From a virus (lineage: Duplodnaviria; Heunggongvirae; Uroviricota; Caudoviricetes): DNA of 64,000 bases. The notes under the pieces are model-generated. The model ran no database searches. It had not been told where the DNA came from and worked only from the letters and a program-made list of their open reading frames with translations. Below are positions 8,931 through 57,690 of this stretch, piece by piece (position 1 is the first letter of the stretch; each line of letters begins with the position of its first letter). The stretch is from the IMG/VR virus record IMGVR_UViG_3300037189_028117, positions 18,977 to 82,976 of that record; one strand, given 5' to 3'. The position numbers and the translations under genes are program-made.

Positions 8931-9650
8931 ATGAATATAATAAATGTTCCAAAAGGAACTCAAATACTCTTTGTTGGAGATATACACGAACACGATGATC
9001 AATTCTTTTCTTTAATGGAAAATTGGAAACCTTCTCTTGAAAGATGGGTCGTATCCCTGGGAGACGTGTGCGACAAGGGCAAGGGAGATGGAGCTTTCGA
9101 AAAGGTGTCTCATTTTTTGCAGGACGGCCACAGGCAGGGATGGGCAAGAGCAATCAAGGGAAACCACGAGCTGAAGCGTCTAAAAAATAGAAGACACAAT
9201 CTGAAAGATTATGACTTGTGGTGGAAAGAAAGACAAATTTCACTTTCATTTCAATTTTACAATTCAAATATTATAACTTGTGTTCATGCAGGAATTCCAC
9301 CCAAACTATCAAGCGATGATTTGAAAAAAAATCTTGATGTTTGTTATGTCAGAGACGTTGACGACCAAGGAATCATTCCATTAATTTGGAAACATGATGA
9401 AATAAATCCAAAGTTGGTCAAGGCTCGCGAAGGTGGGATTTCTTGGCATGAAATTTATGATGGACGTTTTGGTTATGTTATTTCCGGACATAATGCTCAA
9501 ACAGATGGCATTCCAAAGTTTTTTAATTATTCCTGCAATATAGATACAGGAGTATATGAAACTGGAATTTTAACTGGTCAAATTATTGATGAAAATGGAA
9601 AACTAGGAGAAACCTTACAAATTAAAGGTGAAGTTTTTAGAAGTAAATAA
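8931..9650 (+). CDS. calcineurin-like metallophosphoesterase (PPP family)
   Basis: 'LFVGDIHEHDD', 'SLGDVCDKG', 'GNHE' metallophosphatase motifs; contains a GC3-rich patch 9048-9182. Confidence 0.75.
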   Translation: MNIINVPKGTQILFVGDIHEHDDQFFSLMENWKPSLERWVVSLGDVCDKGKGDGAFEKVSHFLQDGHRQGWARAIKGNHELKRLKNRRHNLKDYDLWWKERQISLSFQFYNSNIITCVHAGIPPKLSSDDLKKNLDVCYVRDVDDQGIIPLIWKHDEINPKLVKAREGGISWHEIYDGRFGYVISGHNAQTDGIPKFFNYSCNIDTGVYETGILTGQIIDENGKLGETLQIKGEVFRSK

Positions 9651-9657
9651 GTTTTAA

Positions 9658-9770
9658 AAACTAAGTAAATATTATTTACTAAGTAAATATTACCTATAAT
9701 CTTGATTATAGGTAAATTTATTTACTAAGTAATATTTACTTAGTAAATAATATATATTATTTACTAACAA
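9658..9770. promoter_or_regulatory. array of 4-5 dyad-symmetric sites (ATTTAC-TAA-GTAAAT) plus 20-bp palindrome, candidate operator/iteron region
   Basis: direct copies at 9658-9674 and 9675-9692, perfect 13+3+13 palindrome 9720-9748, partial copy 9759-9769; hairpin 'cctataatcttgattatagg' 9693-9712. Confidence 0.6.
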
Positions 9771-9777
9771 AATATTA

Positions 9778-9804
9778 CGAAGTAATATTTTACTTCGTTT
9801 TTTG
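9778..9804 (+). terminator. intrinsic terminator
   Basis: 'cgaagtaa-tatt-ttacttcg' 8-bp stem + 'ttttttg'. Confidence 0.6.
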
Positions 9805-9807
9805 ATT

Positions 9808-9835
9808 TTGCAATTATTACAATATATGTTATAAT
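9808..9835 (+). promoter_or_regulatory. sigma70-like promoter with extended -10 (TTGCAA-16-TGtTATAAT), near-leaderless for ORF at 9843
   Basis: -35 9808-9813, -10 9830-9835 preceded by TG; ATG at 9843. Confidence 0.5.
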
Positions 9836-9842
9836 ATAATAA

Positions 9843-10199
9843 ATGGAAGATAAGTTAAATTTACCAGAATTAAATCCAAATTTATTCTCTTATTTAGAAG
9901 AAATAAAATTTAACAATCCAGTTAAATTAACAAATCAAGAAGAATTGCTTTTTAAATTAAAAGCTCACATTGATTTGCCTATGAATTTAATAGTCTTCAT
10001 TATAGAAGAATTTTTAAATGAAGCAAAATCGGCACTTATAATAGGAGATTCGATTGACATGAGGCCGATAGGTATGCTATACACGGACAAAGACTCTGAG
10101 ATTTCAAGGTTGGTCAAGTTAAAAAGACATAAAAATTTAAAACGTAGAATTATATATGGAAAAAAACATAAATATGAACATTTCAGAAGTTCCAAGTGA
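9843..10199 (+). CDS. hypothetical protein (118 aa)
   Basis: first ORF after promoter/operator region. Confidence 0.45.
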   Translation: MEDKLNLPELNPNLFSYLEEIKFNNPVKLTNQEELLFKLKAHIDLPMNLIVFIIEEFLNEAKSALIIGDSIDMRPIGMLYTDKDSEISRLVKLKRHKNLKRRIIYGKKHKYEHFRSSK

Positions 10200-10572
10200 A
10201 AGTTTAATTAATTATATTTCAAATTATCAAGTTACAAAAATAAATAAAGAATTATCTAAAAATTGTATGATTGAACTCTTAAGAAGAAGATCTGAAGGAG
10301 AAGATTTGGATTTTGAAAAATTAATTTCTGATAAAGTAAATTTATTAAAGTCTGTTGGTAAAGGTTATGTGGTAAAAATTGATCCTAGATTTGATTTAAA
10401 TAAATCTGTTGAAAAGATATATAATATATCTCCATGTATGATTTTTAATAGAACAGAAAATTTAATCCATGTTGGAATTCCAATTGATGAAAAAATTAAA
10501 CAAATATGTTCTTTAGAAGAATCAATTATGTTTGAAAGCGATAAAAACTACTTACATTTAAGTTTAGAGTAA
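10156..10572 (+). CDS. hypothetical protein (138 aa)
   Basis: ORF; start uncertain (overlap with previous). Confidence 0.4.
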   Translation: MEKNINMNISEVPSESLINYISNYQVTKINKELSKNCMIELLRRRSEGEDLDFEKLISDKVNLLKSVGKGYVVKIDPRFDLNKSVEKIYNISPCMIFNRTENLIHVGIPIDEKIKQICSLEESIMFESDKNYLHLSLE

Positions 10573-10575
10573 ATT

Positions 10576-11001: not shown

Positions 11002-11351
11002 AATATATTGTTGTTTCAATTTTTATACCCGAATCTGGAGATAAATCTATTTATATTGCAACAAAAATTAATAGTAAAGAATTAATTGAAGAACCAATAT
11101 TTGATTGGGAAAACCTTGAATTTATAAAACAAATCTTTAATATAAAATTGATAATTAAAAATAATAAAGTAGATATAAATGAATTTATTAAAATTCATAA
11201 TTTCATCTTTTTAGAAGAAGATTTGTGCAGAATCTGTAACAAAACAAGAATATTTATTCCTTTAAAAGATTCATTTTCTTCAATTGAAGATTTTGAATCA
11301 TATGTTAAAAATGAAATTGATAAATTTGAATTATTTAAGGAAATTATATGA
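10998..11351 (+). CDS. hypothetical protein ending 'LFKEII', ATGA-coupled
   Basis: as above. Confidence 0.45.
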   Translation: MKYIVVSIFIPESGDKSIYIATKINSKELIEEPIFDWENLEFIKQIFNIKLIIKNNKVDINEFIKIHNFIFLEEDLCRICNKTRIFIPLKDSFSSIEDFESYVKNEIDKFELFKEII

Positions 11352-11938
11352 ATAAAGATAAACTATTTTTAAAAACTAAAAGGTATCCACAAAAAGAATT
11401 AGAAAAATATATTAATCTTTTTAATTCAAAAGATTGGAATAACATTTCTAAATATCAATATTTGTCAGAAAAATTTATTGAAAAACATTCAGATAAAATT
11501 AATTGGAAATTAATTTCTGCTCATCAAACTTTATCCGAAAAATTTATAGAAAAACATTACAATAAAGTTGATTGGGTTTATATTTCTCGTTGTCAAAAAT
11601 TAACAGAATTTCTTATAGAAAAACATTCAAATAAAATATCTTGGGGTTTTATTTCTTATTATCAAACTTTATCAGAATCATTTATTGAAAAATATCAGGA
11701 TAAACTTCATTGGTATTGGATTTCTTGGGCCCAAAGTTTATCTGAAGATTTTATTGAAAAACATTCAGATAAAATCTATTGGGATTGTATATCTCGATAT
11801 CAAAACTTATCTAAAGAATTTATAAAAAAACACGTTAATAAAATTAATTTTTATTATTTAAAATATAATAAAAACATTTCGAAAGAATTAAGATTAAAAA
11901 TTAAAAAAGAAATTGAATTATTGAAAGAAATTATATGA
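11348..11938 (+). CDS. 23-aa-repeat family protein (6 repeats)
   Basis: six consecutive 'SxYQxLSExFIEKHSDKIxWxxI' units; 'IELLKEII'. Confidence 0.75.
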   Translation: MNKDKLFLKTKRYPQKELEKYINLFNSKDWNNISKYQYLSEKFIEKHSDKINWKLISAHQTLSEKFIEKHYNKVDWVYISRCQKLTEFLIEKHSNKISWGFISYYQTLSESFIEKYQDKLHWYWISWAQSLSEDFIEKHSDKIYWDCISRYQNLSKEFIKKHVNKINFYYLKYNKNISKELRLKIKKEIELLKEII

Positions 11939-14989: not shown

Positions 14990-15484
14990 ATGGAAGAAAA
15001 AATTGATTTTTGCGAAAAATTTGTTTCAGATTGTATTAAATCAGGAATAACAAAACCTAATGATATTTGTGATTTAGCTCTCAAAAAGATAGAAGAGATA
15101 GATTTAGAAATAGAAAAAGCTAAAATTCTAAGATTGGAGAGAGATAAGTATCAATCTGTTTTGAGAAACTTTAATCATAAATCTATAAAAACAAGAGGTA
15201 GAAAACAAAATCCAACAATTGTCAATTTTGATGCTGATTCTGATATGGAAGAGTATGAAACTCTCATTGTTGATATTATTACACAATTTACTGATGTTAA
15301 TAATATGACCGTGGTTGACTTGGCCGGCCGAGTGGGGTATGGTGCTGGGACTGACCCCACCCCTTTATATACGGCGTTGAAGTGGCTTCAAGCTAAAAAT
15401 ATACTCTTTAGAGAGGTGGATAGGTCACTTTCTCGTGGCAGTAATTGGGATAATAGATTTAATTTTATAAAGAAAGAAGGCTGA
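14990..15484 (+). CDS. hypothetical protein (164 aa)
   Basis: RBS 'aaagggttgat'; contains GC3-rich patch 15306-15395. Confidence 0.45.
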   Translation: MEEKIDFCEKFVSDCIKSGITKPNDICDLALKKIEEIDLEIEKAKILRLERDKYQSVLRNFNHKSIKTRGRKQNPTIVNFDADSDMEEYETLIVDIITQFTDVNNMTVVDLAGRVGYGAGTDPTPLYTALKWLQAKNILFREVDRSLSRGSNWDNRFNFIKKEG

Positions 15485-15486
15485 TT

Positions 15487-16155
15487 ATGCGTTTTAAACA
15501 AGAAGATTTTTTTAACAATTTGGATTCTTTTCTTGAAGAAGTAAAGGTTAAAGAGAGTAAGAAAAAGAAAAAAACCTACAAAGGTACAATTAATGGTTTT
15601 GTAGGTAATTACGATTTTCTTTCAAATTTATTTTGTAGACCACAAACATCAATAATTTATTTTAATACCGTAAATGAAAAAGGTCAAGAAATGTTGACTT
15701 CAGTTATGGAAACTGCACCAACTCTAGAGCATCTATTTCAGATGTCTAAAACAATCAATCGTGAACAACAATTAAAGATTAAAGAAGCTCATACACCACT
15801 TCAAGCAAGAAGGTTAGGTTCAAAAGTGGATTTAATTAGTAATTGGGATGAGAAAAGGGTTCCAGTAATGAAGTCATTATTGGAGGATAAATTTTCTCAA
15901 CACTTTGATTTGAGATTAAAGCTTCTTGTAACTAATGGTTTTAAACTTGTAAATGAATCTCCATTAAACGAACCATTTTGGGCAACAAAAAATGGAAATG
16001 GAGAAAATATGTTGGGAAAACTTTTAGAAGAAGTTAGGAGTAGAATAATTAGAGATAGTGGTTCTCCAAAAGAAATTTTGCAAGCTTATTTGTCAAGGGA
16101 TGGTCTTGGTTTTATTTGCGATTGGTTTGAGGAAAATAAAATGAAAATTGTATGA
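15487..16155 (+). CDS. NADAR (YbiA-like, DUF1768) domain protein
   Basis: 'GNYDFLSNLF', 'EHLFQ', 'ARRLGSK', 'LKLLVTNGFKLVNESPLNEPFWATKNGNGENMLGKLLEEVRSRI' match the NADAR signature (LSNF...EHYFQ...ARK.GR...L.TG...L.E.S..D..WG.G.G.N.LG..LM..R). Confidence 0.7.
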   Translation: MRFKQEDFFNNLDSFLEEVKVKESKKKKKTYKGTINGFVGNYDFLSNLFCRPQTSIIYFNTVNEKGQEMLTSVMETAPTLEHLFQMSKTINREQQLKIKEAHTPLQARRLGSKVDLISNWDEKRVPVMKSLLEDKFSQHFDLRLKLLVTNGFKLVNESPLNEPFWATKNGNGENMLGKLLEEVRSRIIRDSGSPKEILQAYLSRDGLGFICDWFEENKMKIV

Positions 16156-16598
16156 AACATAATTTACATTTACAATCTAAAAAATATTCTGAAAAAGAAT
16201 TGGAAGATAATATTGGTTTATTTGATGAATATGATTGGCATGCAATTTGTTATGCACAGATTTTATCTGAAAAATTTATAGAAAAACACTCAGATAAAAT
16301 TAACTGGAATATTATAAGTTATTGCCAATTTTTATCCGAAAGGTTTATAGAAAAACATTGGAATAAAGTTGATTGGAAAACCATTGCAATTAAACAAGAA
16401 TTATCCGAAAAATTTATTGAAAAACACATGCTTCATATGGATAAAATTACTTGGAATTTTATTTCTAGATACCAAAAGCTATCAGAAGAATTCATTAAAA
16501 AACATATAAATAAACTTGAATTAAATAATTTATTTAATAATAAAAAAGTTTCAGAAGAAACCAAAAATGAAATAAAATTATTAAAAGAAGTTATATGA
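16152..16598 (+). CDS. 23-aa-repeat family protein (4 repeats)
   Basis: 'MKHNLHLQSKKYSEKELEDNIGLFDEYDW', 'EIKLLKEVI'. Confidence 0.7.
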   Translation: MKHNLHLQSKKYSEKELEDNIGLFDEYDWHAICYAQILSEKFIEKHSDKINWNIISYCQFLSERFIEKHWNKVDWKTIAIKQELSEKFIEKHMLHMDKITWNFISRYQKLSEEFIKKHINKLELNNLFNNKKVSEETKNEIKLLKEVI

Positions 16599-16893
16599 AA
16601 AGATACAATTTAAATATAATTAAATATAGTGAAAATTATTTACAACATAATTTTCATTCATTTGATTCAGTTGATTGGAGTTTAATATCTTCTTATCAGG
16701 TTTTATCGGAAGAATTTATTGAAAAAAAATTCACATAAAGTTAGTTGGAATGATATTTCTGCTAGTCAAAAATTGTCAGAAAAATTTATCAAAAAACATT
16801 TTAAATTACTTGATATAGATAGTTTGCTTTTAAATAAAAATATAAGTAAGAAAACAAAAGGGAAAATTCTATTATTAAAAGAAATAATATAAT
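16598..16893 (+). pseudogene. 23-aa-repeat family member split by frameshift in an A8 run (~16733)
   Basis: 'MKRYNLNIIKYSENYLQHNFHSFDSVDWSLISSYQVLSEEFIEKKFT*' then other frame 'KFTHKVSWNDISASQKLSEKFIKKHFKLLDIDSLLLNKNISKKTKGKILLLKEII*'. Confidence 0.55.
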
Positions 16894-17072
16894 GTACTCT
16901 ATACTATGTGAACTACTTTCACCTAAAAGTGAAGTCTTCCTATCTTTATTGAATAAAAAATATGATTTTTTGATTCAATAATCAAGGCTTTATATTCGGG
17001 CAGTTCCTGCCCTATTAACTTTATATTTTTTGTTGCATTGATATCCTTGTCATTAAGATATAGAATATATTG

Positions 17073-22152: not shown

Positions 22153-23157
22153 ATGGAAGACATTTTAAAATATAAAATGAATAAAGTTTTAACAAGTTTA
22201 AAACTGAATGCAAAATGTGTTCACGCAGAACAAAATAGACACTTAGCTTTTTTTGATCTTCAATTGGATAACTCAACAAGAGTTAGAAAGATTGAAATGT
22301 TCAATAGAGAGATTAGTCTTGGTTTAAAATCAAAAACTCAACCTATTATTCAAACCCTTTCAGATAAGGGAGTGGTGAGGGTTAAAGTTGCCATGGGTGA
22401 CTCCAAGGTTCTCCCCCTAGACCACCTACTCTCCAAAAATGTGATGCCTTCTGGCATTCTACCAACCCTCCTCGGAGAGACGGACACAGGAACACCATTA
22501 TGGATGGATATGTCAAAAAATCCACATTTATTAATTGCTGGAACTACTGGGTCTGGTAAATCAACCTTACTTCATGTAATTATAGAAAATCTTATAAATA
22601 GAGATGATACATTTCTTTATTTAATTGATCCAAAACAAGGAGTTGAGTTTGGTTTATATGAAAAATATAAAAATACAAAAGTTATATGCGAGTACAATGA
22701 TGTTCTTAAAAACTTGCAAGATTTAAAGAATTTGATGGAAAAAAGATTTTTAAAACTAAAACAATTAGGATTAAAATCAATTGAAGAAAACCCTTTTGTA
22801 TTCAATAAGTACATTGTAATAATTGATGAGGTTTCGGATATTATGTTAAATGATTCTTCTAGAAAGAATCCTAACAAAAATATGTTTGAAACATTACTTG
22901 TTGCTTTGGCTCAAAAAGCAAGAGCTGCTGGTATTTACTTAGTCTGTGCAACGCAAAGACCATCAGTTGATGTATTAACTGGTTTAATCAAGGCAAACTT
23001 CCCAGCAAGAATATCATGTAAGGTTAATTCTGCTGTAGATTCAAAGGTTATTTTAGATTCTGTTGGAGCAGAATCTCTATTAGGTAGAGGTGATGCAATC
23101 TTAAGTAATGTTACAAATGGTAACATTAGATTTCAATCAGCTTTTGTTAAAAGATAA
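22153..23157 (+). CDS. FtsK/SpoIIIE-family DNA-translocase-like ATPase
   Basis: Walker A 'LLIAGTTGSGKSTLL', Walker B 'YIVIIDEVSD', signature 'LVCATQRPSVDV'. Confidence 0.75.
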   Translation: MEDILKYKMNKVLTSLKLNAKCVHAEQNRHLAFFDLQLDNSTRVRKIEMFNREISLGLKSKTQPIIQTLSDKGVVRVKVAMGDSKVLPLDHLLSKNVMPSGILPTLLGETDTGTPLWMDMSKNPHLLIAGTTGSGKSTLLHVIIENLINRDDTFLYLIDPKQGVEFGLYEKYKNTKVICEYNDVLKNLQDLKNLMEKRFLKLKQLGLKSIEENPFVFNKYIVIIDEVSDIMLNDSSRKNPNKNMFETLLVALAQKARAAGIYLVCATQRPSVDVLTGLIKANFPARISCKVNSAVDSKVILDSVGAESLLGRGDAILSNVTNGNIRFQSAFVKR

Positions 23158-26728: not shown

Positions 26729-27258
26729 AAAAGCAAAAAGTTAAAAAAATTTTATCAAAAGAGCAAGAAGAGAATATATTAAATATTCTCTCAAATAATT
26801 TTTCAAATGGAGATCATTTTGATTTCTCTTTTAATTTTAAAAATTACAATTATTCAGAAGAGTTTATAGAAAAAGCTATTCCTTATTTAGACTCGAAAAC
26901 ACTAGGAAGTATTATTACTAATGATAATTGCAAGTATATATTTTTGTTATCTGAAAATTCTATTAAAAAAATTTTAAAATACAAATATGTTTGTTTACAG
27001 TTTTCATACTATGCAAATAGAATATTTAAAAAAAGACTCTTCTCTGAAGATTTTTTGCAAAGTTATATAAACAAATTTACTCGTAAGAATAGTTATTATT
27101 TTTCAAATAATATTTCTTTAATTTCTATATATCAAAATATGTCTGAAGATTTTATTATTAAAAATATAAAAATTTTAAATGTTGAATTCTTGATAAGAAA
27201 CAAAAATATAACAAAAGATGTAAAAAATAAAATTATTTCATTAAGAGAAATTATATGA
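26725..27258 (+). CDS. degenerate repeat-family-like protein (177 aa)
   Basis: 'NMSEDFIIKNIKILNVEFLIRNKNITKDVKNKIISLREII'. Confidence 0.5.
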   Translation: MKKQKVKKILSKEQEENILNILSNNFSNGDHFDFSFNFKNYNYSEEFIEKAIPYLDSKTLGSIITNDNCKYIFLLSENSIKKILKYKYVCLQFSYYANRIFKKRLFSEDFLQSYINKFTRKNSYYFSNNISLISIYQNMSEDFIIKNIKILNVEFLIRNKNITKDVKNKIISLREII

Positions 27259-27776
27259 AAAAACATAATTTGGATTTAAAATATAATAGATATTCAGAGC
27301 AAGAATTAAAAGATAAAATTCACTTATTTGATTTAAATGATTGGGATAATGTTTCTGAGCATCAAAATCTATCTAAAATTTTTATCAGAAAACATTCAGA
27401 CAAACTTTGTTGGGGTTGCATTTCTTACTTTCAAGAATTATCAGAAAAACTTATAGAAAAATATTCGGAAAAAGTTAATTGGCATTCGATTTCTTCTGAA
27501 CAAAAATTATCAGAAGAATTTATTGAAAAATACTCAGATAAAGTTGATTGGATTAATATTTCTTATTGTCAAAAATTATCTGAAAAATTTATAGATAAAT
27601 ACTCAAATAAACTTGATTGGTATTCTATTTCTGCTAGTCAAAAATTATCAGAAGAGTTTATAAAAAAATATATAAATAAAATTAATATTGGTTTTTTAAT
27701 GGAAAACCCAAACATTTCTGAAAAATTAAAAAAGAAAATAAAAAAAGAAATTAAATTATTAAAAGAAATCATATGA
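27255..27776 (+). CDS. 23-aa-repeat family protein (5 repeats)
   Basis: canonical caps and repeats. Confidence 0.75.
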   Translation: MKKHNLDLKYNRYSEQELKDKIHLFDLNDWDNVSEHQNLSKIFIRKHSDKLCWGCISYFQELSEKLIEKYSEKVNWHSISSEQKLSEEFIEKYSDKVDWINISYCQKLSEKFIDKYSNKLDWYSISASQKLSEEFIKKYINKINIGFLMENPNISEKLKKKIKKEIKLLKEII

Positions 27777-28156
27777 AAAAACATAATTTAGATTTATTAA
27801 GTAAAATATATTCCGAAGAAGAATTGGAAGAAAACATTATGTTATTTAAAAAACTTGATTGGCATACAATTTGTTATGCGCAGGTTTTGTCTGAAAATTT
27901 TATTGAAAAATACTCTGATAAAATTTATTGGGAATTGATTTCTGAATGTCAAAATTTATCCGAAGAATTTATTGAAAAACATTCAGATAAAGTTGACTGG
28001 GATTATATTGCTATAGAGCAAGTTTTATCAGAAAAATTTATAAGAAAACATATAGATAAAATTGATATTAATTATTTAATGGAAAACTATCATATAGATG
28101 AGAATGTAAAATCTAAAATTAAATTAGAAGTCGATTTATTAAAAGAAATTATATAA
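27773..28156 (+). CDS. 23-aa-repeat family protein (3 repeats)
   Basis: canonical caps, 'VDLLKEII'. Confidence 0.7.
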   Translation: MKKHNLDLLSKIYSEEELEENIMLFKKLDWHTICYAQVLSENFIEKYSDKIYWELISECQNLSEEFIEKHSDKVDWDYIAIEQVLSEKFIRKHIDKIDINYLMENYHIDENVKSKIKLEVDLLKEII

Positions 28157-28418: not shown

Positions 28419-29312
28419 ATGGCATCAGTAATAGATAGGGTTTTTAGATTTAATTTAGCTTCTCCTCCACCTTGGTTGAGAACAAATGTTCATTACGAAG
28501 TTGTTATGGGATCTACCGCTTATGGTGTATCTTCTGATAATTCTGATATGGACATTTATGGATTTTGTATTCCTCCTAAAGAATATATATTCCCTCATTT
28601 ATCCGGTTACATCAATGGTTTTGGTAAAAAACCTCCAAATTTTGAAGTTTGGACAGAACATCATATAAAAGACAAAGATAAAAACAAAGAATACGATTTT
28701 TCTATTTATGGAATTGTTAAATTTTTTCAATTGTGTATGGACAATAACCCAAACATGATTGATTCTCTTTTTGTTCCACAAAACTGCGTTCTTCATCAAA
28801 CCAGAGTCGCTACAATGATTAGAGATAATAGAAAAATATTTCTTCATAAGGGATGCTATCATAAATTTAAAGGTTACTCATTTAGTCAATTACATAAAGC
28901 TGAAATTAAAAATCCACAAGAAGGTTCAAAAAGATATGAAGATATAAAAAATCATGGTTATGATTCAAAATTCTTGTACCACGTTGTTAGACTTTTAGAT
29001 GAATGTGAGCAAATTCTTACATTAGGTGACCTTGATTTACAGAGGTCGAAAGAGTATCTTAAGGCCATCCGTAGAGGAGAAGTTTCCGAAGAAGATGTAA
29101 AATCTTATTTTAACGAAAAAGAAAAATATTTAAACAAATGTTACGAAGAATCAAAGCTTCCTTATTCTCCAGATGAGGATAAAATAAAAACTCTTCTTTT
29201 GAATTGCTTGGAGGACCATTATGGTTCTTTGGAAAAAGCTTATTTTGATCCTGGCAAAGCTGAAAAGGCTTTGATGGAAATAAAGCAAATAATTGAAAGA
29301 AATGTAAAATGA
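28419..29312 (+). CDS. Pol-beta-superfamily nucleotidyltransferase-fold protein
   Basis: 'GSTAYGVSSDNSDMDIYGF' = GS-x9-DxD NTase motif. Confidence 0.55.
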   Translation: MASVIDRVFRFNLASPPPWLRTNVHYEVVMGSTAYGVSSDNSDMDIYGFCIPPKEYIFPHLSGYINGFGKKPPNFEVWTEHHIKDKDKNKEYDFSIYGIVKFFQLCMDNNPNMIDSLFVPQNCVLHQTRVATMIRDNRKIFLHKGCYHKFKGYSFSQLHKAEIKNPQEGSKRYEDIKNHGYDSKFLYHVVRLLDECEQILTLGDLDLQRSKEYLKAIRRGEVSEEDVKSYFNEKEKYLNKCYEESKLPYSPDEDKIKTLLLNCLEDHYGSLEKAYFDPGKAEKALMEIKQIIERNVK

Positions 29313-29677
29313 ATTTAATGAACAAAAAATATTCTGAAAAAGAATTGGAAGTGAATATTGATTCATTTAATGATATTGATTGGATGAACGTTTGTGAATT
29401 TCAGAATTTATCTGAAGAATTTATGGAAAAATATTATAATAAGTTGAATTGGCTTTATGTTTCTAAATGTCAAAAATTATCTGAAAATTTTATAGAAAAA
29501 TATTCAGATGAATTATATTGGGATTTGATTTCTCAATATCAAAAATTATCAGAGTTTTTTATTAAAAAACATATAAATAAAATTAGTTTTTATGATCTTA
29601 TGTTAAATAAAAACATTTCAAAACATTTGAAAGAAGAAATAAAAGAAGAATTAGAGTTGTTGAAAGAAGTTATATGA
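29309..29677 (+). CDS. 23-aa-repeat family protein (3 repeats)
   Basis: 'KKYSEKELEVNIDSFNDIDW', 'LELLKEVI'. Confidence 0.7.
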   Translation: MNLMNKKYSEKELEVNIDSFNDIDWMNVCEFQNLSEEFMEKYYNKLNWLYVSKCQKLSENFIEKYSDELYWDLISQYQKLSEFFIKKHINKISFYDLMLNKNISKHLKEEIKEELELLKEVI

Positions 29678-29973
29678 AACATAATTTAGATTTAGTGTAT
29701 AAAAAATATACCGAAGAAGAATTAGAAAATAACATTCATTTATTTGAATTCAATGATTTTCGTAGAATTTATACATATCAAAAATTATCAGAAAAGTTTA
29801 TAGAAAAACATTCAACTAATGTTGATTGGGGATATATTTCTCATTATCAATATTTATCTGAAGAATTTATAAAAAAACATATAAATAAAATTAGTATTTA
29901 TTATTTAATGATGAACAAAAAAATCTCTAAGAACATCAAACAAGAAATAAAAACATTAAAGTATATAATATGA
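29674..29973 (+). CDS. 23-aa-repeat family protein (2 repeats)
   Basis: 'MKHNLDLVYKKYTEEELENNIHLF', 'IKTLKYII'. Confidence 0.7.
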   Translation: MKHNLDLVYKKYTEEELENNIHLFEFNDFRRIYTYQKLSEKFIEKHSTNVDWGYISHYQYLSEEFIKKHINKISIYYLMMNKKISKNIKQEIKTLKYII

Positions 29974-30269
29974 AAAAACATAATTTAGATTTATTTAAGA
30001 AATGTTCTGAAAAAGAATTAGAAAAAAACATTGATTTATTTAATCAAATTGAGTGGAATATTATTTCTTATTCTCAAAAATTATCAGAGTCATTTATAGA
30101 AAAATATTCACATAAACTTGATTGGGGATGGATTTCAATTTATCAAGAATTATCTGAAAAATTTATAATGAAACATCTTGATAAGATTAGTGTTTTTTGG
30201 TTAATGGAAAATAAAAAAATCTCTAATAATATTAAAAAAGAAATAAAAACATTAAAAGATATAATATAA
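29970..30269 (+). CDS. 23-aa-repeat family protein (2 repeats)
   Basis: 'MKKHNLDLFKKCSEKELEKNIDLF', 'IKTLKDII'. Confidence 0.7.
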   Translation: MKKHNLDLFKKCSEKELEKNIDLFNQIEWNIISYSQKLSESFIEKYSHKLDWGWISIYQELSEKFIMKHLDKISVFWLMENKKISNNIKKEIKTLKDII

Positions 30270-30373
30270 TGACAAAGCAAGAAAAGATATATAAACTATG
30301 TTTAAAGTTCATAAAAGAAAATAAAATTGGTTGCTCGGAAACTATTTTTCAAACCGACATGGTTTCTGAATAG
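30269..30373 (+). CDS. possible 34-aa micro-ORF (TAATG overlap)
   Basis: 'MTKQEKIYKLCLKFIKENKIGCSETIFQTDMVSE*'. Confidence 0.25.
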   Translation: MTKQEKIYKLCLKFIKENKIGCSETIFQTDMVSE

Positions 30374-33815: not shown

Positions 33816-34057
33816 AAAAACATAATTTAAATTTGGCCAGGAATAAATATTCAGAAAAAGAATTAGAAGATAATATTAACTTTTTTGATCTAATAGATTG
33901 GGGAGATATTGCTTATCATCAAGAATTATCCGAAGAATTTATAAAAAAACATATTAATAAAATTAGTATTTTTTTATTAATGAGAAACAAGAAAATTTCT
34001 AAAAAATTAAAAGAAAAAATTGAAAAAGAAATTAATTTATTGAAAGAAATTATATAA
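33812..34057 (+). CDS. 23-aa-repeat family protein (1 repeat)
   Basis: caps with single repeat. Confidence 0.65.
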   Translation: MKKHNLNLARNKYSEKELEDNINFFDLIDWGDIAYHQELSEEFIKKHINKISIFLLMRNKKISKKLKEKIEKEINLLKEII

Positions 34058-34350
34058 TGCTAAATGAATATATTTTAATTTACATACCAAATAAAAACAA
34101 TGAATTTTTTGATTTTTTTATTTCTTATGATAAAAATTATCAAAATAATGATGATCTTGGAAAATATTTCAAAAAATTTGAACCAAATACAATAGATATT
34201 GAATTGTTTTTAACAGAAATTGATAATGATTATTTATTTAAATTAAATAATAAAGTTAAAGAAGATGGTTTTTATTGTTATTTGAAATATAAGAAAAAAA
34301 CAATAAAACAAGATATAAAAAATTTGTTAACGATTAAGGATATTATATAA
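34057..34350 (+). CDS. hypothetical protein ending 'LLTIKDII'
   Basis: shared C-tail only. Confidence 0.4.
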   Translation: MLNEYILIYIPNKNNEFFDFFISYDKNYQNNDDLGKYFKKFEPNTIDIELFLTEIDNDYLFKLNNKVKEDGFYCYLKYKKKTIKQDIKNLLTIKDII

Positions 34351-34361: not shown

Positions 34362-35411
34362 ATGATAAAAAACACAATAGGAATACCAAAAGAAATAAAA
34401 AAATTTGAATTTAGAGTTGGAGCAACTCCAACTTGTGTAAAAGCTTACAAGAAAATTTGCGAATATGTTTTCGTTGAAGCTGGAGCTGGTATAGGTTCCG
34501 GCTTTTCTGACGATGAATATGCTGAAGCTGGAGCAACAATTGTATCCACAGCAAAAGAAGCTTGGAATGCTGAAATGGTTATAAAAGTAAAAGAACCTCA
34601 ACCTTCTGAATTTCAATATTTTGAAAAAGGTAAATTTCTTTATACTTACCTTCATTTAGCAGCTTTCCCAGATTTAACAGAAGCTTTGGTTCGCTCTGAG
34701 ATGAATTGCGTTGGATATGAAACAATCTCAGAAAACAATTCTTTAGTTTGTCTAGAACCAATGTCCATCATTGCTGGCAAGCTGGCTGCTCAGAAGGGGT
34801 CCGAGTACCTCCTAGCGCCACACGGTAGGGGCATTTTAATGGGGGGTCTTCCTGGAATTCCTCCAGCCAATGTAACCATTGTTGGTGGTGGTTCAGTCGG
34901 AACGGCCGCTGCAAGAGTATCTATTGGCATGGGAGCAAACGTTACCATACTTGATATTTCTCAAAAAAGATTATATGAATTAGAAAATATATTTGGAAAT
35001 TCAGTTAATTTATTATTATCAAATGATAAAAATATAAAATCAACATTAGTAAATACTGATCTTTTAATTGGTGCAGTTCTTATTCCTGGTAAAAAAGCTC
35101 CAAAATTATTTAATTCAATTTTACTTAATTTAATGAAAAGAAATTCTGTATTTGTTGATGTTGCCATAGATCAAGGTGGTTGTTCAGATACATCTGTGCC
35201 TACTACACATGATAATCCTATATATTATAAAGATAATATTTTGCATTATTGTGTAGCAAATATGCCTTCTGTATCAGCTAGAACATCAACTTTAGCCTTA
35301 ACTAATTCAACTTTAAAATATGGTTTAGATTTATTTTTAAATAAAGATAGAAAATGCGAAATAGATAAAGGTTGGCAAATTAATAAAAACGGAATGATAA
35401 TATCAATGTGA
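34362..35411 (+). CDS. ald: L-alanine dehydrogenase
   Basis: near-colinear with bacterial Ald: 'IGIPKEIKKFEFRV', 'AGAGIGSGF', 'AEMVIKVKEP', 'YTYLHLAA', 'VTIVGGGSVGTAAAR', 'VDVAIDQGG', 'HYCVANMP'; SD 'aaaggaaaatcg'. Confidence 0.85.
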   Translation: MIKNTIGIPKEIKKFEFRVGATPTCVKAYKKICEYVFVEAGAGIGSGFSDDEYAEAGATIVSTAKEAWNAEMVIKVKEPQPSEFQYFEKGKFLYTYLHLAAFPDLTEALVRSEMNCVGYETISENNSLVCLEPMSIIAGKLAAQKGSEYLLAPHGRGILMGGLPGIPPANVTIVGGGSVGTAAARVSIGMGANVTILDISQKRLYELENIFGNSVNLLLSNDKNIKSTLVNTDLLIGAVLIPGKKAPKLFNSILLNLMKRNSVFVDVAIDQGGCSDTSVPTTHDNPIYYKDNILHYCVANMPSVSARTSTLALTNSTLKYGLDLFLNKDRKCEIDKGWQINKNGMIISM

Positions 35412-38199: not shown

Positions 38200-39501
38200 A
38201 TGACAACATTAACAGAACTAGACATTGAGAAACAAGAAGATTTATCTAAAAAAAGACTTAAGTCATTTACCCCGAAATATTCAAACTTAAATGATAGACC
38301 TGAATCAAATTTAATAGATTTAATGAATTGGGTTCAAAATACATTTAAAACTGAATTGAAAGATTCAAAACATTTAAGTAATGTCATTCACAATAAAATT
38401 GTAATTGATGGACCATTCGTTCAATTTTGCGAAGAAAATGAAATAAAAATAGAATGTTTATATAAAGATTCTTTTGCTTCTTGGAAGTCCGAAAATAACT
38501 TTGAAAGTTTCACATTTCAAGGTGTTTTTAAAATTTCAAAAGGAAATCTTGAATTTATACAATCTTCCTTATTTCATAAGGGCAATCAAAACGAAGATGA
38601 AGTTTCATATTTTATAGTTGTAAGCGATGATAAATTTCATCAATATACAAAATTAAGAAATGATTATGATAGTTGGTTAATTGCAAGAGACCGTGAAAAT
38701 CTTGAAATCCAAGTCATTGGAGGAGAGCCAATTCCATATGAAAGGAACCTTTCTTGGGATGATCTTTTCATGGAAGAATCTTTGAAAAAAGAAATAAAAG
38801 GTACGGTTGAAGGTTTTCTTAATGCAGAATCTCTTTATAAAGAACGTGGTATTCCATGGAAAAGAGGTGTTTTGTTTTTCGGGGAGCCAGGAAATGGAAA
38901 AACATCTGCAATAAGAACGATTATATCAGAATATAATTTTAAGCCAGTTACAGTTCAAAATAGCGCATCCACTAATGATGATACCATTACTGAAGCTTTT
39001 GTTTATGCAGAACAACAGGGGCCTTCATTATTATATTTTGAAGATCTAGATAGTTTGTTGCAACAAAATATTAGCTTAAGTCATTTTTTGAATTTAATGG
39101 ACGGCGTTGCATCTAAACAAGGAATTTTCATAATTGCTACAGCTAATGAACCAGGAATATTAAAGCAATCTATAACAGACAGACCTTCTAGATTTGATCG
39201 TAAATGGGAATTTAAATTACCAGATGAAAAGAGTTCTTTAGATTATTTAAAGAAGTGGTTTGGAACACAAATTAAAGAAGAATCTTTGAAAAAAGTTGCC
39301 GAAAAAACTGTAAAATATAAATTTTCTTTTTCATATTTGAAAGAATTATATATAACTGCGGCATATTCTGCAATTTCAAATAATAGAAAAACACCAAATA
39401 ATAAAGATTTATCAATTGCCTTGAAGCAATTGGTAGGAGATAAAACAAGAGCGCAAGATGGGTTTTATACAAATACAAGTGAGGAAATAGGAATAAGATG
39501 A
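38200..39501 (+). CDS. AAA family ATPase
   Basis: Walker A 'GEPGNGKTS', Walker B 'LLYFEDLD', sensor 'ATANEP'. Confidence 0.75.
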   Translation: MTTLTELDIEKQEDLSKKRLKSFTPKYSNLNDRPESNLIDLMNWVQNTFKTELKDSKHLSNVIHNKIVIDGPFVQFCEENEIKIECLYKDSFASWKSENNFESFTFQGVFKISKGNLEFIQSSLFHKGNQNEDEVSYFIVVSDDKFHQYTKLRNDYDSWLIARDRENLEIQVIGGEPIPYERNLSWDDLFMEESLKKEIKGTVEGFLNAESLYKERGIPWKRGVLFFGEPGNGKTSAIRTIISEYNFKPVTVQNSASTNDDTITEAFVYAEQQGPSLLYFEDLDSLLQQNISLSHFLNLMDGVASKQGIFIIATANEPGILKQSITDRPSRFDRKWEFKLPDEKSSLDYLKKWFGTQIKEESLKKVAEKTVKYKFSFSYLKELYITAAYSAISNNRKTPNNKDLSIALKQLVGDKTRAQDGFYTNTSEEIGIR

Positions 39502-39755
39502 GTAAAGCAACCAAAATACCAGCAACATTAGATCAAATGAGAAAGTTTTCGGCAATTGAAGCAAAACCAGCTTCTGATTCAAGAGAAGATTTTGAATATG
39601 CTTTGAGAATTTTTAAATCAATAGTTCAAAAGGAAAGAATTTTATCTCTTTATAAAGAAAAACAAAGATATGAAAAACCTTCCGTTAAAAAAAGAAGAAA
39701 GAAAATCGAAGCTTTGCAAAGAGCTAAAGAAGAAAAGGTAAAAGATGGAGAGTGA
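39498..39755 (+). CDS. rpsU: ribosomal protein bS21 homolog (with ~30-aa N-terminal extension)
   Basis: 'EDFEYALRIFKSIVQKERILSLYKEKQRYEKPSVKKRRKK' vs E. coli S21 '[40 protein letters not shown]'. Confidence 0.7.
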   Translation: MSKATKIPATLDQMRKFSAIEAKPASDSREDFEYALRIFKSIVQKERILSLYKEKQRYEKPSVKKRRKKIEALQRAKEEKVKDGE

Positions 39756-53551: not shown

Positions 53552-53552
53552 C

Positions 53553-54527
53553 ATGCCTGTTTTAACAATTACTATTTCGGAAGATCCAATTCAAATCATA
53601 TCAGGAATACCAAGAAGTATATCTGTTGAAACAAATTTACCTTCAACCGTTTTCTACACTTTAGATGGTTCAGATCCAACTGTTGATTCAGATATATTAA
53701 TTGGATCATTAACTTTACCAACAAATTATCCATCAATTTTATTAAAATTGTTTGCTACAAATGGCGTTGATGATTCTGGAATAATTGAAATAGAATATAA
53801 AACCTCTTGGATAGGTGATAAAAGGCCAAGAGATAAAGTTATATCTGATGATAGCGGTTGTTCCAGTGGTTGCGTTGAACCATTCACTTCCTCCTACACA
53901 GGTCCAACAGCACAATATGGAAACATGGCCGGTGTTGTTGTGGACTCGGCCGGAACCGAAGGTATACCTAACGGTTACAGGGATGGATATGTAGTATCGG
54001 AAACTGATAAGCCATATCATAGATGGAATTATGATATAGTTTATGATACAACAAACTCTATAGGTTTAAGCGGTCCTTTTATTGGTAACTTGCCAGCGAA
54101 AGTTACTTATTATAAACCTCCAACTTATAATAAATCAAATAAAGTTAATAGTTTATTATTTAATCCAAAAGCAATGGTTATCGTGCAAGATGGTAGACAA
54201 GAAAATGAAGATCCAAATGTAACTTTTTTAAATAGAAATTATTTCTCACTAAAGCCTTCGAGAGATGATTTTAGTGACTATACAACACCAGCGAACGACG
54301 GAAATCCATTAAAGGGTTCTTTTATTAAATCTTTTTATAATCAAAAAGAAAACACTTATACATTTTATTATAGAGATTTTGCAACGGATAGATGGATAAT
54401 ATCAATTGAACCTGCCTCAAAAATAAAAACAAATCCAAAACCTGTTTTGAAAGATTTTATTGCCCCAGTTTCTTTTGCTAATAAAAAAGTTTTCCAATGG
54501 GTTCCATTTCATAGAAGATACATTTAA
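53553..54527 (+). CDS. hypothetical beta-rich protein (324 aa)
   Basis: ORF; contains GC3-rich patch 53853-53985. Confidence 0.45.
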   Translation: MPVLTITISEDPIQIISGIPRSISVETNLPSTVFYTLDGSDPTVDSDILIGSLTLPTNYPSILLKLFATNGVDDSGIIEIEYKTSWIGDKRPRDKVISDDSGCSSGCVEPFTSSYTGPTAQYGNMAGVVVDSAGTEGIPNGYRDGYVVSETDKPYHRWNYDIVYDTTNSIGLSGPFIGNLPAKVTYYKPPTYNKSNKVNSLLFNPKAMVIVQDGRQENEDPNVTFLNRNYFSLKPSRDDFSDYTTPANDGNPLKGSFIKSFYNQKENTYTFYYRDFATDRWIISIEPASKIKTNPKPVLKDFIAPVSFANKKVFQWVPFHRRYI

Positions 54528-54566
54528 TTCTCTATTTAGAATAGAGTTGTTATAGAGAAAGATATA

Positions 54567-55472
54567 ATGTCAGTTTTAAAAGGAAAGTTTTTGAAAGTTT
54601 TGCCAGAGAATTATTCTCAACATTTTAAACTTTCTGTATCTAAAATTAAAACATTTGAGTCATGTAAGGCTAAGTTTTATTTTTCATATATAAAATATAT
54701 TCAAAAGAAAGAATGGGAATTCCAAATATTTGGATCATTTTTACATGAAGTTTTAGAAAGATTTGAGGAGTTCATAAAAAACGGTGATTCTTCTGAAGAA
54801 AATGTAATTATGAAAAAAGCTTTCAATAATGCTTGGAAAGCTGTACCGTTTAAAAACGGTGAAAAGTTTACAAAATGGTCAGAAAAAGTTTCCGTAGAAC
54901 AGAAGAAAGAATGTTTAACTATATTAAACAGCTACCTATCTTTAAGAAAATCTTTGAAAGAAAATGGTAATGTATCTAAAACACTGGATACAGAAAAGAA
55001 GTTTAATATTTTATTGCAAGAAAATTTATTAATAAATGGTTTTATAGATTTGTTACAAGAAGATAGTGATGGTATTTTACATGTAATTGATTATAAATCA
55101 AGTTCACATACAAAATATTTAAAGAAAGATAAGTTTCAATTACAAACATATGCTTATGCTCTTTTTCTTGAAAACCCAGAATTACAAAAAATAAGAGGTT
55201 CTTATGTTATGTTAAAACATAATTTTGAAAAAATAACATTTGAATTTACAAGAGATCAAATTATGAAATGTGAGAAAGAATTCATAAAATATTATGAACA
55301 AATGCAAGAAGAAAAGCTTTATAGACCTGAACCTGGACCCCTTTGCAAATATTGTGACGCTTTAGATTTATGTGAAGAAGGGCAAAAAAGAGTTGAGGAA
55401 GACAAGCAACGAGAAGAGAAAAAAAAGGATTACTCAATACAAAACATTGTAGTTGGTGAAAGGGAATGGTAA
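54567..55472 (+). CDS. PD-(D/E)XK nuclease with 4-Cys cluster (Cas4/AddB-like)
   Basis: 'GFIDLL', 'ILHVIDYKSS' (D...E/D-x-K), Cys at 'ESCKAKFYF' and 'CKYCDALDLCEE'. Confidence 0.65.
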   Translation: MSVLKGKFLKVLPENYSQHFKLSVSKIKTFESCKAKFYFSYIKYIQKKEWEFQIFGSFLHEVLERFEEFIKNGDSSEENVIMKKAFNNAWKAVPFKNGEKFTKWSEKVSVEQKKECLTILNSYLSLRKSLKENGNVSKTLDTEKKFNILLQENLLINGFIDLLQEDSDGILHVIDYKSSSHTKYLKKDKFQLQTYAYALFLENPELQKIRGSYVMLKHNFEKITFEFTRDQIMKCEKEFIKYYEQMQEEKLYRPEPGPLCKYCDALDLCEEGQKRVEEDKQREEKKKDYSIQNIVVGEREW

Positions 55473-55473
55473 A

Positions 55474-56670
55474 ATGATTTCAGTACAAGATATAGAATAT
55501 TGCAAAGTTAAAGTTAATTACAAGGCTGATTTAGAAAAGATCAATTCAGTAAAAAATGATATTATTAAAAATTTTAGAAACATGAAAGTGCCAGGATTTA
55601 GAACTGGCAAAGCATCTGATCAAGCGGTTTTTTATCATTACAAATCGGAAATAAATAACGCTGTCAAAAATGAATTGATAAGTCAATCAAATGACGATAT
55701 TTTATTTGAAACTAAAATAAGACCAATAGGGCAACCACAAATCAAAAGTGTATTTTTTGATGGTAAAATATTCGAGTGTGAAATTGTCTATTCAAAAAAA
55801 CCAGATTTTGAATTAAAACAATATAAAGAACTTGAGGTTGTAGATCCACATATGGATTCTTCTGTAGAAGAAATTACAGAAAGCACAATTCAAGAATTAA
55901 GAAACCAATTTTCAGAAGTTAGAGCTTATGCCGATGAAGACTTTATACAAGATGGAGATAAAGTGACCTTATCATATAAGTTTGAGGATGGTACAGAAGA
56001 AGAAGGTACTTTATATACTGTTGGATCAAACGGGTTTCCTGGTTTCGACCAAAATATATATGGCATGTCTCCCGGAGACGAAAGAGATTTTCAAATTGAA
56101 TTAAATGGTAAAGTCCAAAAATGCCATGTTCAATTTCATATGGGTATGAAAAAATCTCCAGCTGAGCTAAATGATTCTTTGGCAATAAAAGTTGGTCTAC
56201 AAAATATAGATGAACTTTATGTTAATGTAAAGGCAATGTCTGAGCAACAATTTAAAGCACAAAAAGATGCAAAGATTGCAGATCAAATTATTAAAATCTT
56301 ATGTGATTCACATGAAATTGTATCTCCAGAATGGATTGTTGAGCTAGAAGCGCAACAATTAACATTAAAAGAAGGTCAAAAGTTTAGCGAACTTGATGAT
56401 AATGTAAAAAAACATTATTTAGAAAAAGCTGAAAAAAATGTTAAATTGGCATTTATTTTAGATTCTATTCAAATGGAAGAACCAGAATCTAAAATTTCAG
56501 AAAACGAAGCTCTTCAATTAATTCACCAAAACCTAACCCAAAGAGGTATTAAAGCGCAAGAATGGATGGAGAACGCTGCAAAAAATGGAATGTTGCAAGG
56601 TGTTCTAACAAAATTCAGAAATGATTTTACCATTCAATGGTTGGTGGATAATTGTAAAAAGATTTCCTAA
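55474..56670 (+). CDS. tig: trigger factor-like chaperone
   Basis: N-domain 'MKVPGFRTGKASDQAV' (TF 'GFRKGKVP'), PPIase-like 'FPGFDQNIYGMSPGDERDF' (TF 'IPGFEDGIKGHKAGEEF'); start taken at 'MISVQD'. Confidence 0.7.
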   Translation: MISVQDIEYCKVKVNYKADLEKINSVKNDIIKNFRNMKVPGFRTGKASDQAVFYHYKSEINNAVKNELISQSNDDILFETKIRPIGQPQIKSVFFDGKIFECEIVYSKKPDFELKQYKELEVVDPHMDSSVEEITESTIQELRNQFSEVRAYADEDFIQDGDKVTLSYKFEDGTEEEGTLYTVGSNGFPGFDQNIYGMSPGDERDFQIELNGKVQKCHVQFHMGMKKSPAELNDSLAIKVGLQNIDELYVNVKAMSEQQFKAQKDAKIADQIIKILCDSHEIVSPEWIVELEAQQLTLKEGQKFSELDDNVKKHYLEKAEKNVKLAFILDSIQMEEPESKISENEALQLIHQNLTQRGIKAQEWMENAAKNGMLQGVLTKFRNDFTIQWLVDNCKKIS

Positions 56671-56692
56671 TGGAAAAGAAAGGTAATTAGAA

Positions 56693-56998
56693 ATGAGAAA
56701 GCAAAAAAATGATAGTGGTGACTCTAAATTAGATGGCATCCCTAAGAAAATACAAAAAATTCTAGCAGATGATTTAGAATGGCTAGAAAAAGCACAACAG
56801 TTTAGCAAACAAGATATTGATAAAGAAATTGTAATTTGTAACGAAGTTATAGTTGATTTAGCAAAGGATATGGATGCTGATCAACATTTAAATGAAATAA
56901 AAGAACAAAAGAAAGAAGCCGAAGCTGTTTATAAGTCTGGTTTAAAGATTAATAACGCTAGAGTTGCTTACTTAGTTGCTCTAAAAAGATCAATGTAA
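56693..56998 (+). CDS. hypothetical protein
   Basis: ORF. Confidence 0.4.
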   Translation: MRKQKNDSGDSKLDGIPKKIQKILADDLEWLEKAQQFSKQDIDKEIVICNEVIVDLAKDMDADQHLNEIKEQKKEAEAVYKSGLKINNARVAYLVALKRSM

Positions 56999-57002
56999 AT
57001 TA

Positions 57003-57030
57003 ATGGCGGGAGGAAACTCCCGCCATTTTT
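57003..57030 (+). terminator. intrinsic terminator with GAAA tetraloop
   Basis: 'atggcgggag-gaaa-ctcccgccat' + 'ttttt'. Confidence 0.75.
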
Positions 57031-57040
57031 AAATAAACGC

Positions 57041-57385
57041 ATGAAAAACATACCATGTAGAATAAAAACACATTCATCAAATAAGAGTGAAAACTTCTTT
57101 GATTTTTATTCTTTTGTTTATGATATTTCTTTTGTCAGAGAAAACATTGATAAAATGAAACCTTATGATTGGTATATGATAAGTCACACTCACGAGTTAG
57201 ATATGGATTTCATTCAAACTTATGAAGACAAACTAGTTCTTGATGCTTTGTGTAGATTTCAAAATTTAAGCGAAGAATTTATAAGAAAAAATATATCATT
57301 AATAAATATTAATGATCTTAAAGTAAATAAGAATATTGATGAAAAAATAATTGAAGAAATTAAATTATTAAAAGATATTATATAG
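57041..57385 (+). CDS. 23-aa-repeat family protein (1 repeat, divergent N-term)
   Basis: 'CRFQNLSEEFIRKNISLININDLKVNKNIDEKIIEEIKLLKDII'. Confidence 0.6.
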   Translation: MKNIPCRIKTHSSNKSENFFDFYSFVYDISFVRENIDKMKPYDWYMISHTHELDMDFIQTYEDKLVLDALCRFQNLSEEFIRKNISLININDLKVNKNIDEKIIEEIKLLKDII

Positions 57386-57408
57386 CATTAATTATAAGAT
57401 ATTAAAAT

Positions 57409-57690
57409 ATGGTACAAAGAAAAACTGTAAAATCTTGCTGTGGTAAAGCTTCCGTCACTTTAGTTCTAACTAAACCTGCTAGAATAAGTCATGTTGAGTT
57501 ATTTAAACAAAATGGATTTCAAATTCCAGATGTTTATGTTAAAGCGGGAATTCTTTATGCAAAAAAAAATGGCTTGATTGCAACAGCCACTTTTGGTATA
57601 TGTACCGTCAACGTCCGCTGCTCAGGACCCAACTGTGATTCTTTAATTAATGAATTAGAAAAAGTATTTTCAATTATAGAAAACGAATAA
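57409..57690 (+). CDS. hypothetical protein
   Basis: ORF with GC-rich patch 57578-57645. Confidence 0.4.
   Translation: MVQRKTVKSCCGKASVTLVLTKPARISHVELFKQNGFQIPDVYVKAGILYAKKNGLIATATFGICTVNVRCSGPNCDSLINELEKVFSIIENE

Follow-up and report, generated by a model that had tools for sequence, protein, structure and literature searches.

Short patches of G/C-ending codons in the AT-rich genes of a jumbo-phage-like genome

Several genes in a 64,000-nucleotide stretch of viral DNA (Caudoviricetes; positions 18,977 to 82,976 of IMG/VR record IMGVR_UViG_3300037189_028117; hereafter the window) contain short patches in which synonymous codons end in G or C, while the genes themselves are otherwise AT-rich. 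How these patches of raised GC content at third codon positions (GC3) arose, and whether they are maintained, is the question raised by this locus. The window has 27.2% GC and a mean GC3 of 0.17, and nearly every gene is encoded on the plus strand. Since homologs of its phosphoesterase are found on viral contigs of 71-459 kb with 27-43% GC, we read the window as a segment of an AT-rich jumbo-phage-like genome. Its relatives are contigs of 120-460 kb, and the longest recorded contig bearing window proteins is 171,650 bp. Sampling of the lineage is poor: in a collection of 5.8 billion proteins, the best matches are 53% (phosphoesterase) and 60% (alanine dehydrogenase, Ald) identical.

Third-position GC after control for amino acids

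An earlier note on this DNA had listed six GC3-rich patches and held that amino-acid composition alone does not explain them. The 90-nt GC content at all six listed coordinates forms local peaks of 0.44-0.58 (window mean 0.272, standard deviation 0.074). In the analysis, each codon's expected GC3 was set by how the window itself encodes that amino acid; for the null, synonymous codons were shuffled among identical amino acids in 300 permutations. Patch borders and log-likelihood ratios (LLR) were obtained from a maximal-scoring-segment scan under the same permutation null. In 30-codon windows the top z was 7.9, and the permutation maximum never rose above 5.4. Four of the six patches stood, each above all 300 permutations:

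9048..9176, plus strand (p1): 43 codons, GC3 0.65, LLR 26.1, 0/300 permutations, z 7.3; in the calcineurin-like phosphoesterase gene 8931-9650, spanning the GDxxDKG motif to the GNHE motif
15308..15382, plus strand (p2): 25 codons, GC3 0.64, LLR 15.7, 0/300 permutations; in gene 14990-15484, encoding a hypothetical protein of 164 aa (hyp164)
22366..22485, plus strand (p3): 40 codons, GC3 0.60, LLR 18.6, 0/300 permutations; in gene 22153-23157, for an FtsK/SpoIIIE-like ATPase, where it lies in the linker that joins the FtsK_alpha region to the Walker A motif
34764..34844, plus strand (core of p4): 27 codons, GC3 0.67, LLR 17.4, 0/300 permutations; in ald, the alanine dehydrogenase gene (34362-35411), where the N-terminal domain meets the NAD-binding domain

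The scan also returned two patches that had not been listed, and placed the remaining two of the six within chance:

10050..10118, plus strand (unlisted): 23 codons, GC3 0.65, LLR 13.2, P = 0.003, z 5.1; in a 118-aa open reading frame (ORF), 9843-10199
7021..7110, plus strand (unlisted, weaker): 30 codons, GC3 0.57, LLR 11.2, P = 0.037, z 5.7; at the 5' end of a 94-aa ORF, 7021-7305, whose true start codon is uncertain
53853..53985, plus strand (patch 5): in a 324-aa protein; best segment 53922-53981, GC3 0.55, LLR 8.0, P = 0.62
57578..57645, plus strand (patch 6): in a 93-aa ORF; 10-codon run 57604-57633 with 8/10 codons G/C-ending, LLR 9.4, P = 0.21

Thus amino-acid content does not account for the four main patches, and patches 5 and 6 owe their high GC largely to their amino acids or to a brief run of codons. 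The ald patch, which had been drawn at 34775-34945, was confirmed in its core: the segment scan stops at 34844, scattered G/C-ending codons continue to about 34946, and the GC-richness of 34845-34945 is largely due to Gly/Ala/Pro codons.

The shift extends across the genetic code. Leucine codons change from 74% TTR in the background to 75% CTN in the patches (P = 7e-6), and G/C-ending codons are raised in every synonymous-site class. The GC3 test has a useful negative control in the gene for an SPFH/Band 7 protein (613 aa; 31091-32932): its 34-39% GC comes from its amino acids (GC1, the GC content at first codon positions, 0.57) and not from codon choice, with a GC3 of 0.19.

Inheritance, lineage specificity and decay

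The earlier note had raised mosaic assembly as one possible cause. Cluster look-ups of near-identical protein variants led us to strain contigs from JGI 3300047554, JGI 3300043444, SRR35181419, SRR35181420 and ERZ27249305, with 92.6-98% nucleotide identity to the window. In these five other accessions, p1, p2, p4 and patch 5 recur in sequence that is otherwise 2-7% diverged: p1 in strain L016 (JGI 3300043444), where 9/17 single-nucleotide differences fall inside the patch, p2 in contigs L017-L021, p4 in L015 (JGI 3300047554), and patch 5 in L022 and L023. In addition, Logan contig ERR2848576_27560 (run ERR2848576) is 100% identical over window positions 8203-9802, p1 included. The strain contigs cover neither the FtsK-like patch nor the two unlisted patches, and for the FtsK-like protein only identical copies are on record (JGI, Logan, ENA), with no diverged variant.

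Because p1, p2, p4 and patch 5 recur in diverged strain contigs, they are inherited and older than the split of these strains, and mosaic assembly is ruled out for these four. An artefact or chance, whether through chimeric assembly, faulty polishing or nothing more than amino-acid composition, we consider hardly credible as an explanation of the set. It would fit the two listed patches that lie within chance and the Gly/Ala/Pro-rich part of the ald peak. However, it is contradicted by the permutation results for the four main patches, by the presence of three of these four and of patch 5 in JGI, Logan and ENA assemblies, and by reading frames and homolog alignments that run uninterrupted across the patches.

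We then compared the patches with relatives. The nearest syntenic relative, L014 (33% GC), has the order FtsK-like, Ald, Metallophos, topoisomerase I, AAA and S21 in common with the window. Its FtsK ortholog has a GC3 of 0.07-0.27 over the codons aligned to p3, and its ald ortholog has a GC3 of 0.20 at the p4 codons. At third positions of the FtsK and ald patches, changes relative to L014 from A or T (W) to G or C (S) outnumber the reverse by 44:13, compared with 53:104 in the flanks (P = 2e-8). At codon positions 1+2 of the same genes the W-to-S and S-to-W counts are 21:25 in the patches and 76:158 in the flanks (P = 0.09). The GC implied by amino acids (positions 1+2), expressed relative to the family, is +0.10 in p1 and -0.04 in its flanks, +0.19 in p2 (0.61 in the patch, 0.43 in the family) and -0.04 in its flanks, and +0.03 in p4 and -0.09 in its flanks. 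Once conservation is allowed for, divergence is slightly higher in the patch peptides than in the flanks.

Patches of this kind recur across the family and are not peculiar to the window, each instance being lineage-specific. In eleven more distant jumbo-phage relatives, the phosphoesterase genes have GC3 bumps at other, non-homologous positions. Two AT-rich relatives have GC3-rich patches of 35-45 codons each, one in a secreted-protein gene of L013 (409 kb; 1975-2082, z 6.2) and one in a ferritin-like gene of L004 (435 kb; 1026-1151, minus strand, z 5.1). The GC content of the family ranges from 27% to 43%, with local GC3 up to 0.67.

To describe the fate of the patches since the strain split, we compared the window with one strain per patch over the significant cores of p1, p2 and p4, using S-to-W and W-to-S rates from the background and a GC3 equilibrium of 0.16. 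Third positions differ between strains at 12/95 sites in the patches (12.6%) and at 85/1596 sites outside (5.3%; Fisher P = 0.0096), while divergence at codon positions 1+2 is equal (0.8% vs 0.9%). A neutral decay model with genome-wide rates predicted 11.3 differences, close to the 12 observed, whereas a model holding GC3 at 0.65 predicted 5.3 (P(X>=12) = 0.009). Per site, G/C third positions are lost from the patches about as fast as from other sequence. From the agreement with 11.3 rather than 5.3, we conclude that the G/C third positions are not protected and that the patches are decaying. Since the sample is small and the model simple, we grade this evidence against a currently maintained function as good but not conclusive. 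The strain differences in the patches are unpolarised (9 W/S vs 10 S/W), the window being the outgroup to the available strains.

The GC3 excess that is left bounds the age of the patches between the strain split and about 5.4 such units, which corresponds to a background pairwise third-position divergence of <=0.29. Third positions differ from those of L014 at 0.52-0.55 of sites. The patches are thus young.

Possible origins of the patches

Each patch requires about 20 or more mostly synonymous changes, which implies either that the sequence was long filtered by purifying selection against a GC-richer background before it was transferred, or that a fixation bias persisted where the patch now lies. 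The reading that we lean toward, though tentatively, is that the significant patches are short tracts acquired recently from related phages of higher GC, by recombination or gene conversion, and that they are now ameliorating. The break in composition, its inheritance, lineage specificity and young age, and the lack of constraint are observed; the recombination itself and the kind of donor are inferred. A related phage with a GC-richer genome, and not the bacterial host, would donate a tract of about 70-130 bp; homologous (homeologous) recombination or gene conversion would write the tract into an AT-adapted gene, replacing the resident segment in frame; the tract would bring the donor's codon usage together with part of its GC-shifted amino acids, and would then drift toward AT at the ordinary mutational rate of the genome. 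The donor would be an unsampled GC-richer phage of the same clade. Consistent with such import, Pfam scans showed that the window encodes recombination genes of its own, for a PD-(D/E)XK/Cas4-like nuclease and an SbcC/Rad50-like protein, alongside DnaE and topoisomerase I. The family includes members at the GC-rich end of the range given above, and rare residues in common with the phage ortholog point to the same clade for the ald patch.

A donor was sought in several collections. Among GenBank phages, blastn found none. The top 120 homologs in the 5.8-billion-protein collection reached a patch identity of <=58% for the phosphoesterase and peaked at 61% for Ald. For hyp164, the family of 127 representatives (of 1.84 billion), all full-length matches, gave a best non-self identity of 40%, and <=44% in the patch. 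Concatenated patch peptides yielded no donor in 241 M metagenome records, in 185,579 species genomes or in IMG/VR; nothing matched but known relatives and the generic Ald motif IGMGANVT (65% at best). The patch-specific 8-mers QDGHRQGW, KVAMGDSK and AAQKGSEY had no matches, and scans of IMG/VR with the single proteins Ald and FtsK gave no usable match. P0067, encoded on L173, a contig of 40% GC, was considered as a donor with an identity of 58% in the patch and 42% in the flank, but was rejected, as it has neither DNA similarity nor a GC3 rise in the patch.

The earlier note had proposed short-patch gene conversion with GC-richer homologs, naming host alleles at the most conserved segments. 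Of the classes of explanation, conversion of this kind with GC-richer homologs still fits best. Bacterial host alleles, on the other hand, appear very improbable as the source. Such a source would suit ald, which is a metabolic gene of host-like type: outside phages, its nearest homologs are Firmicutes Alds at about 55% identity, and its patch lies within the most conserved part of the protein (family conservation 0.80 vs 0.70). Conservation in the phosphoesterase is neutral in this respect (0.68 vs 0.65), and the FtsK-like patch sits in a variable linker, against the expectation of conserved segments. The best bacterial match to the 61-aa ald patch, however, reaches only 61-65% across the top 120 homologs, the metagenome records and the species genomes, the patch-specific 8-mers are unmatched, and patch peptides in general stay at or below 44-65%. 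Rare residues common to ald and its phage ortholog occur at equal density in the patch (3/61) and in the flanks (13/288). Identity to L014 in the patch is 61.7% for the window's ald and a mean of 66% for bacterial Alds, whereas in the flanks it is 58% and 55%, the tracts being too short for a tree. The closest known relatives of the phosphoesterase and of hyp164 belong to one set of large contigs of phage-like type, which leaves no evident bacterial counterpart, and for the FtsK-like gene the comparison was with its syntenic phage ortholog in L014 rather than with the wider family. Together, the negative searches and the phage-clade residues of ald do not support a bacterial donor.

Several points weigh against the import of tracts from GC-richer phages. 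No donor-like sequence was found in the searches above, the best patch identities being 58% for the phosphoesterase, 61-65% for ald and 44% for hyp164. Thin sampling of the clade makes this absence weak evidence either way, and the hypothesis rests on an unsampled lineage. No strain is known with the AT-rich, pre-patch allele, so the replacement event is not directly seen. A donor at about 50% GC should have left a clearer amino-acid shift than is seen relative to L014, where the W-to-S excess at positions 1+2 is not significant. The decay comparison is also small, with 12 substitutions and a two-rate model.

The main alternative, which we consider unlikely, is that the patches were built in place by an episode of GC-biased gene conversion, or by a recombination or repair hotspot, that is now extinct, so that the tract decays. 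In it, repeated heteroduplex repair between co-infecting strains at short-lived hotspots would favour G/C alleles. Such an episode would give clustered W-to-S changes at all types of synonymous site with some GC-shifted amino acids, and a somewhat accelerated protein divergence inside the patches. It also fits the S-ending fourfold codons, which split between G and C as transitions from the background A:T would predict (21 observed vs 24.7 expected), and arginine codons that are still AGR (AGG) rather than the CGN typical of GC-rich genomes. Relative to L014, amino-acid S-to-W drift is 0.119 per site in the patches, near the 0.137 of the flanks, which suggests residence in the AT-rich lineage. 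The episode would explain why no donor appears in any collection searched, and similar patches are present in AT-rich relatives. An analogue is known in mammals, where GC-biased gene conversion is episodic with turnover of hotspots, as outlined in PMC12290510. On the other side, an ongoing bias is rejected by the strain comparison (5.3 expected, 12 observed, P = 0.009), so the episode must already be over at every locus. By a rough estimate, for GC3 to climb from 0.17 to 0.65 or more in the time that the age bound allows, the local W-to-S rate would have to exceed the background several-fold or more at six or more loci. A literature search found no report of GC-biased gene conversion hotspots in phages, and the substitutions are unpolarised for the reason given above. 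To our knowledge, GC-biased gene conversion has not been reported for any phage. The general form of this explanation would be slightly less probable still: in AT-rich jumbo phages of the family, GC-biased recombination or repair would act in brief, local episodes, as a viral counterpart of the mammalian hotspot episodes, and would rewrite 70-130 bp of a gene at synonymous and some nonsynonymous sites before the tract decays.

A selected feature is less probable again. Under this explanation the patches would act as rare-codon clusters at which ribosomes slow to allow co-translational folding, or as GC-rich DNA or RNA elements such as protein-binding sites and antisense or structured RNAs. At a GC3 of 0.17, G/C-ending codons are rare and the patches are rare-codon clusters by definition; conserved clusters of this type have been described (PMC5438181, in outline). 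Two patches lie at Pfam domain junctions, in ald between AlaDh_PNT_N (7-138) and AlaDh_PNT_C (142-335), and in the FtsK-like protein between FtsK_alpha (7-79) and the motor domain (100-212), and the phage's own products include ribosomal protein S21 and a trigger-factor-like protein. The phosphoesterase patch, however, falls within one domain. Patch positions are not conserved, orthologs having no GC3 enrichment at the same codons, and the third positions diverge faster than outside, fitting neutrality, with G/C lost at about the per-site rate seen elsewhere. Folding of the patches gave z values of -1.5 to +1.0 against dinucleotide shuffles (12 folds, both strands), with no excess structure. 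Rfam had no match at gathering thresholds, and a scan for tRNA and tmRNA found none. The patches have no motif in common: blastn-short returned only 9-10-mers at chance level, k-mer sharing equalled that of shuffles, and no repeat family links them. The embedded RNAs and sequence-specific sites suggested in the earlier note are thus not borne out. Overlapping genes were rejected, since the open stretches in alternative frames and antisense are merely as long as the GC-rich run.

Other processes were considered and set aside. For co-conversion by a homing endonuclease, no HNH, GIY-YIG or LAGLIDADG gene was found among those of the flanking genes that were scanned against Pfam. A-specific mutagenesis, of the kind made by diversity-generating retroelements, does not fit patches in which both A and T are depleted and which lie in enzymes unrelated to one another. 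So many, mostly synonymous, changes per patch would not come from one burst of mutation or from hyperediting of the deaminase type. Periodic spacing was dismissed, as no patches occur at the predicted intermediate positions.

Neighbouring genes, significance and known systems

The window encodes several auxiliary genes: alanine dehydrogenase, ribosomal protein S21 (39498-39755), a trigger-factor-like protein (Trigger_N + Trigger_C; 55453-56670) and a ferritin-like/DUF5856 protein (8353-8880, minus strand), the last being the sole clear minus-strand gene of the window. In the alanine dehydrogenase (34362-35411), near-invariant Ald residues are substituted (MSEIAGR to MSIIAGK). A cassette of two genes at 3997-6836, for a MoxR-like AAA ATPase and a DUF2201/VWA metallopeptidase, has 36-40% GC and a GC3 of 0.32 and 0.26, compared with 0.17 for the window. 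The same pair also adjoins the phosphoesterase gene in the 40% GC relative L173, so the cassette belongs to the family core and is no obvious recent foreign insert. Directly 3' of the phosphoesterase gene, positions 9634-9785 hold dense AT-rich inverted repeats or palindromes with arms of 31-55 nt that are 75-94% complementary. A partial inverted copy is present in strain contig L016. This region may be a terminator or a protein-binding region.

A large family of small paralogous genes (about 80-195 aa) forms several clusters, at 2337-3790, 7306-8356, 11348-11938, 16152-16900, 27255-28156, 29309-30282, 33002-34350 and 61266-63465. Its members are built of 69-nt (23-aa) repeats of the type '...W..IS..QkLSEeFIeKH.dKIdW...' and have conserved N-termini (MKKHNLDL..YSEKELE) and C-termini (..LLKEII). 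Their stop and start codons overlap (..ATTATATGAA..), an arrangement that suggests translational coupling. One member searched against Pfam gave no match, and the family is present in strain contig L021.

Import of the patches would mean that jumbo phages differing widely in base composition recombine at the sub-domain scale of about 100 bp, and that GC-richer relatives, still unsampled, co-infect the same hosts. If the patches come from GC-biased episodes, they would be footprints of recently concentrated recombination in the phage population, and tracts built in place would give the first indication that a virus has GC-biased conversion hotspots. Since the patches are easily detected and their decay is usable as a clock, they could serve to date and count recent exchange in uncultured phages. 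In annotation, they should not be labelled as host-derived segments, hidden RNAs or assembly errors.

Three known systems resemble the patches in part. The rare-codon clusters outlined in PMC5438181 likewise comprise tens of rare synonymous codons in genes of otherwise common codons, and two of our patches lie near domain junctions; but the functional clusters of that account are conserved in position and constrained, whereas orthologs lack the patches, whose synonymous sites evolve at the neutral rate or above it. The episodic GC-biased gene conversion of mammals (PMC12290510, in outline) also produces short clusters of AT-to-GC changes, synonymous and nonsynonymous, with faster local protein evolution and later relaxation. 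That process is tied to eukaryotic meiotic recombination, whereas in the window the direction of change is unpolarised and a one-step import fits at least equally well.

With phage intragenic mosaicism followed by amelioration, the patches have in common an in-frame segment of foreign composition, lineage specificity, a neutral return toward the resident composition, and recombination genes carried by the phage itself. Phages, T4-related ones reportedly among them, are known to become mosaic within genes by homologous or homeologous recombination, and the mosaic units are usually described as gene- or module-sized. Amelioration of foreign DNA is a concept reportedly due to Lawrence and Ochman. 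The tracts found here differ in having no donor found for them, and in being very short (70-130 bp), far below the usual gene or module units. All of those detected are GC-richer than the resident genome, imports from AT-rich relatives being invisible to the test. We regard the patches as modestly interesting and probably as ordinary phage mosaicism at an unusually fine scale.

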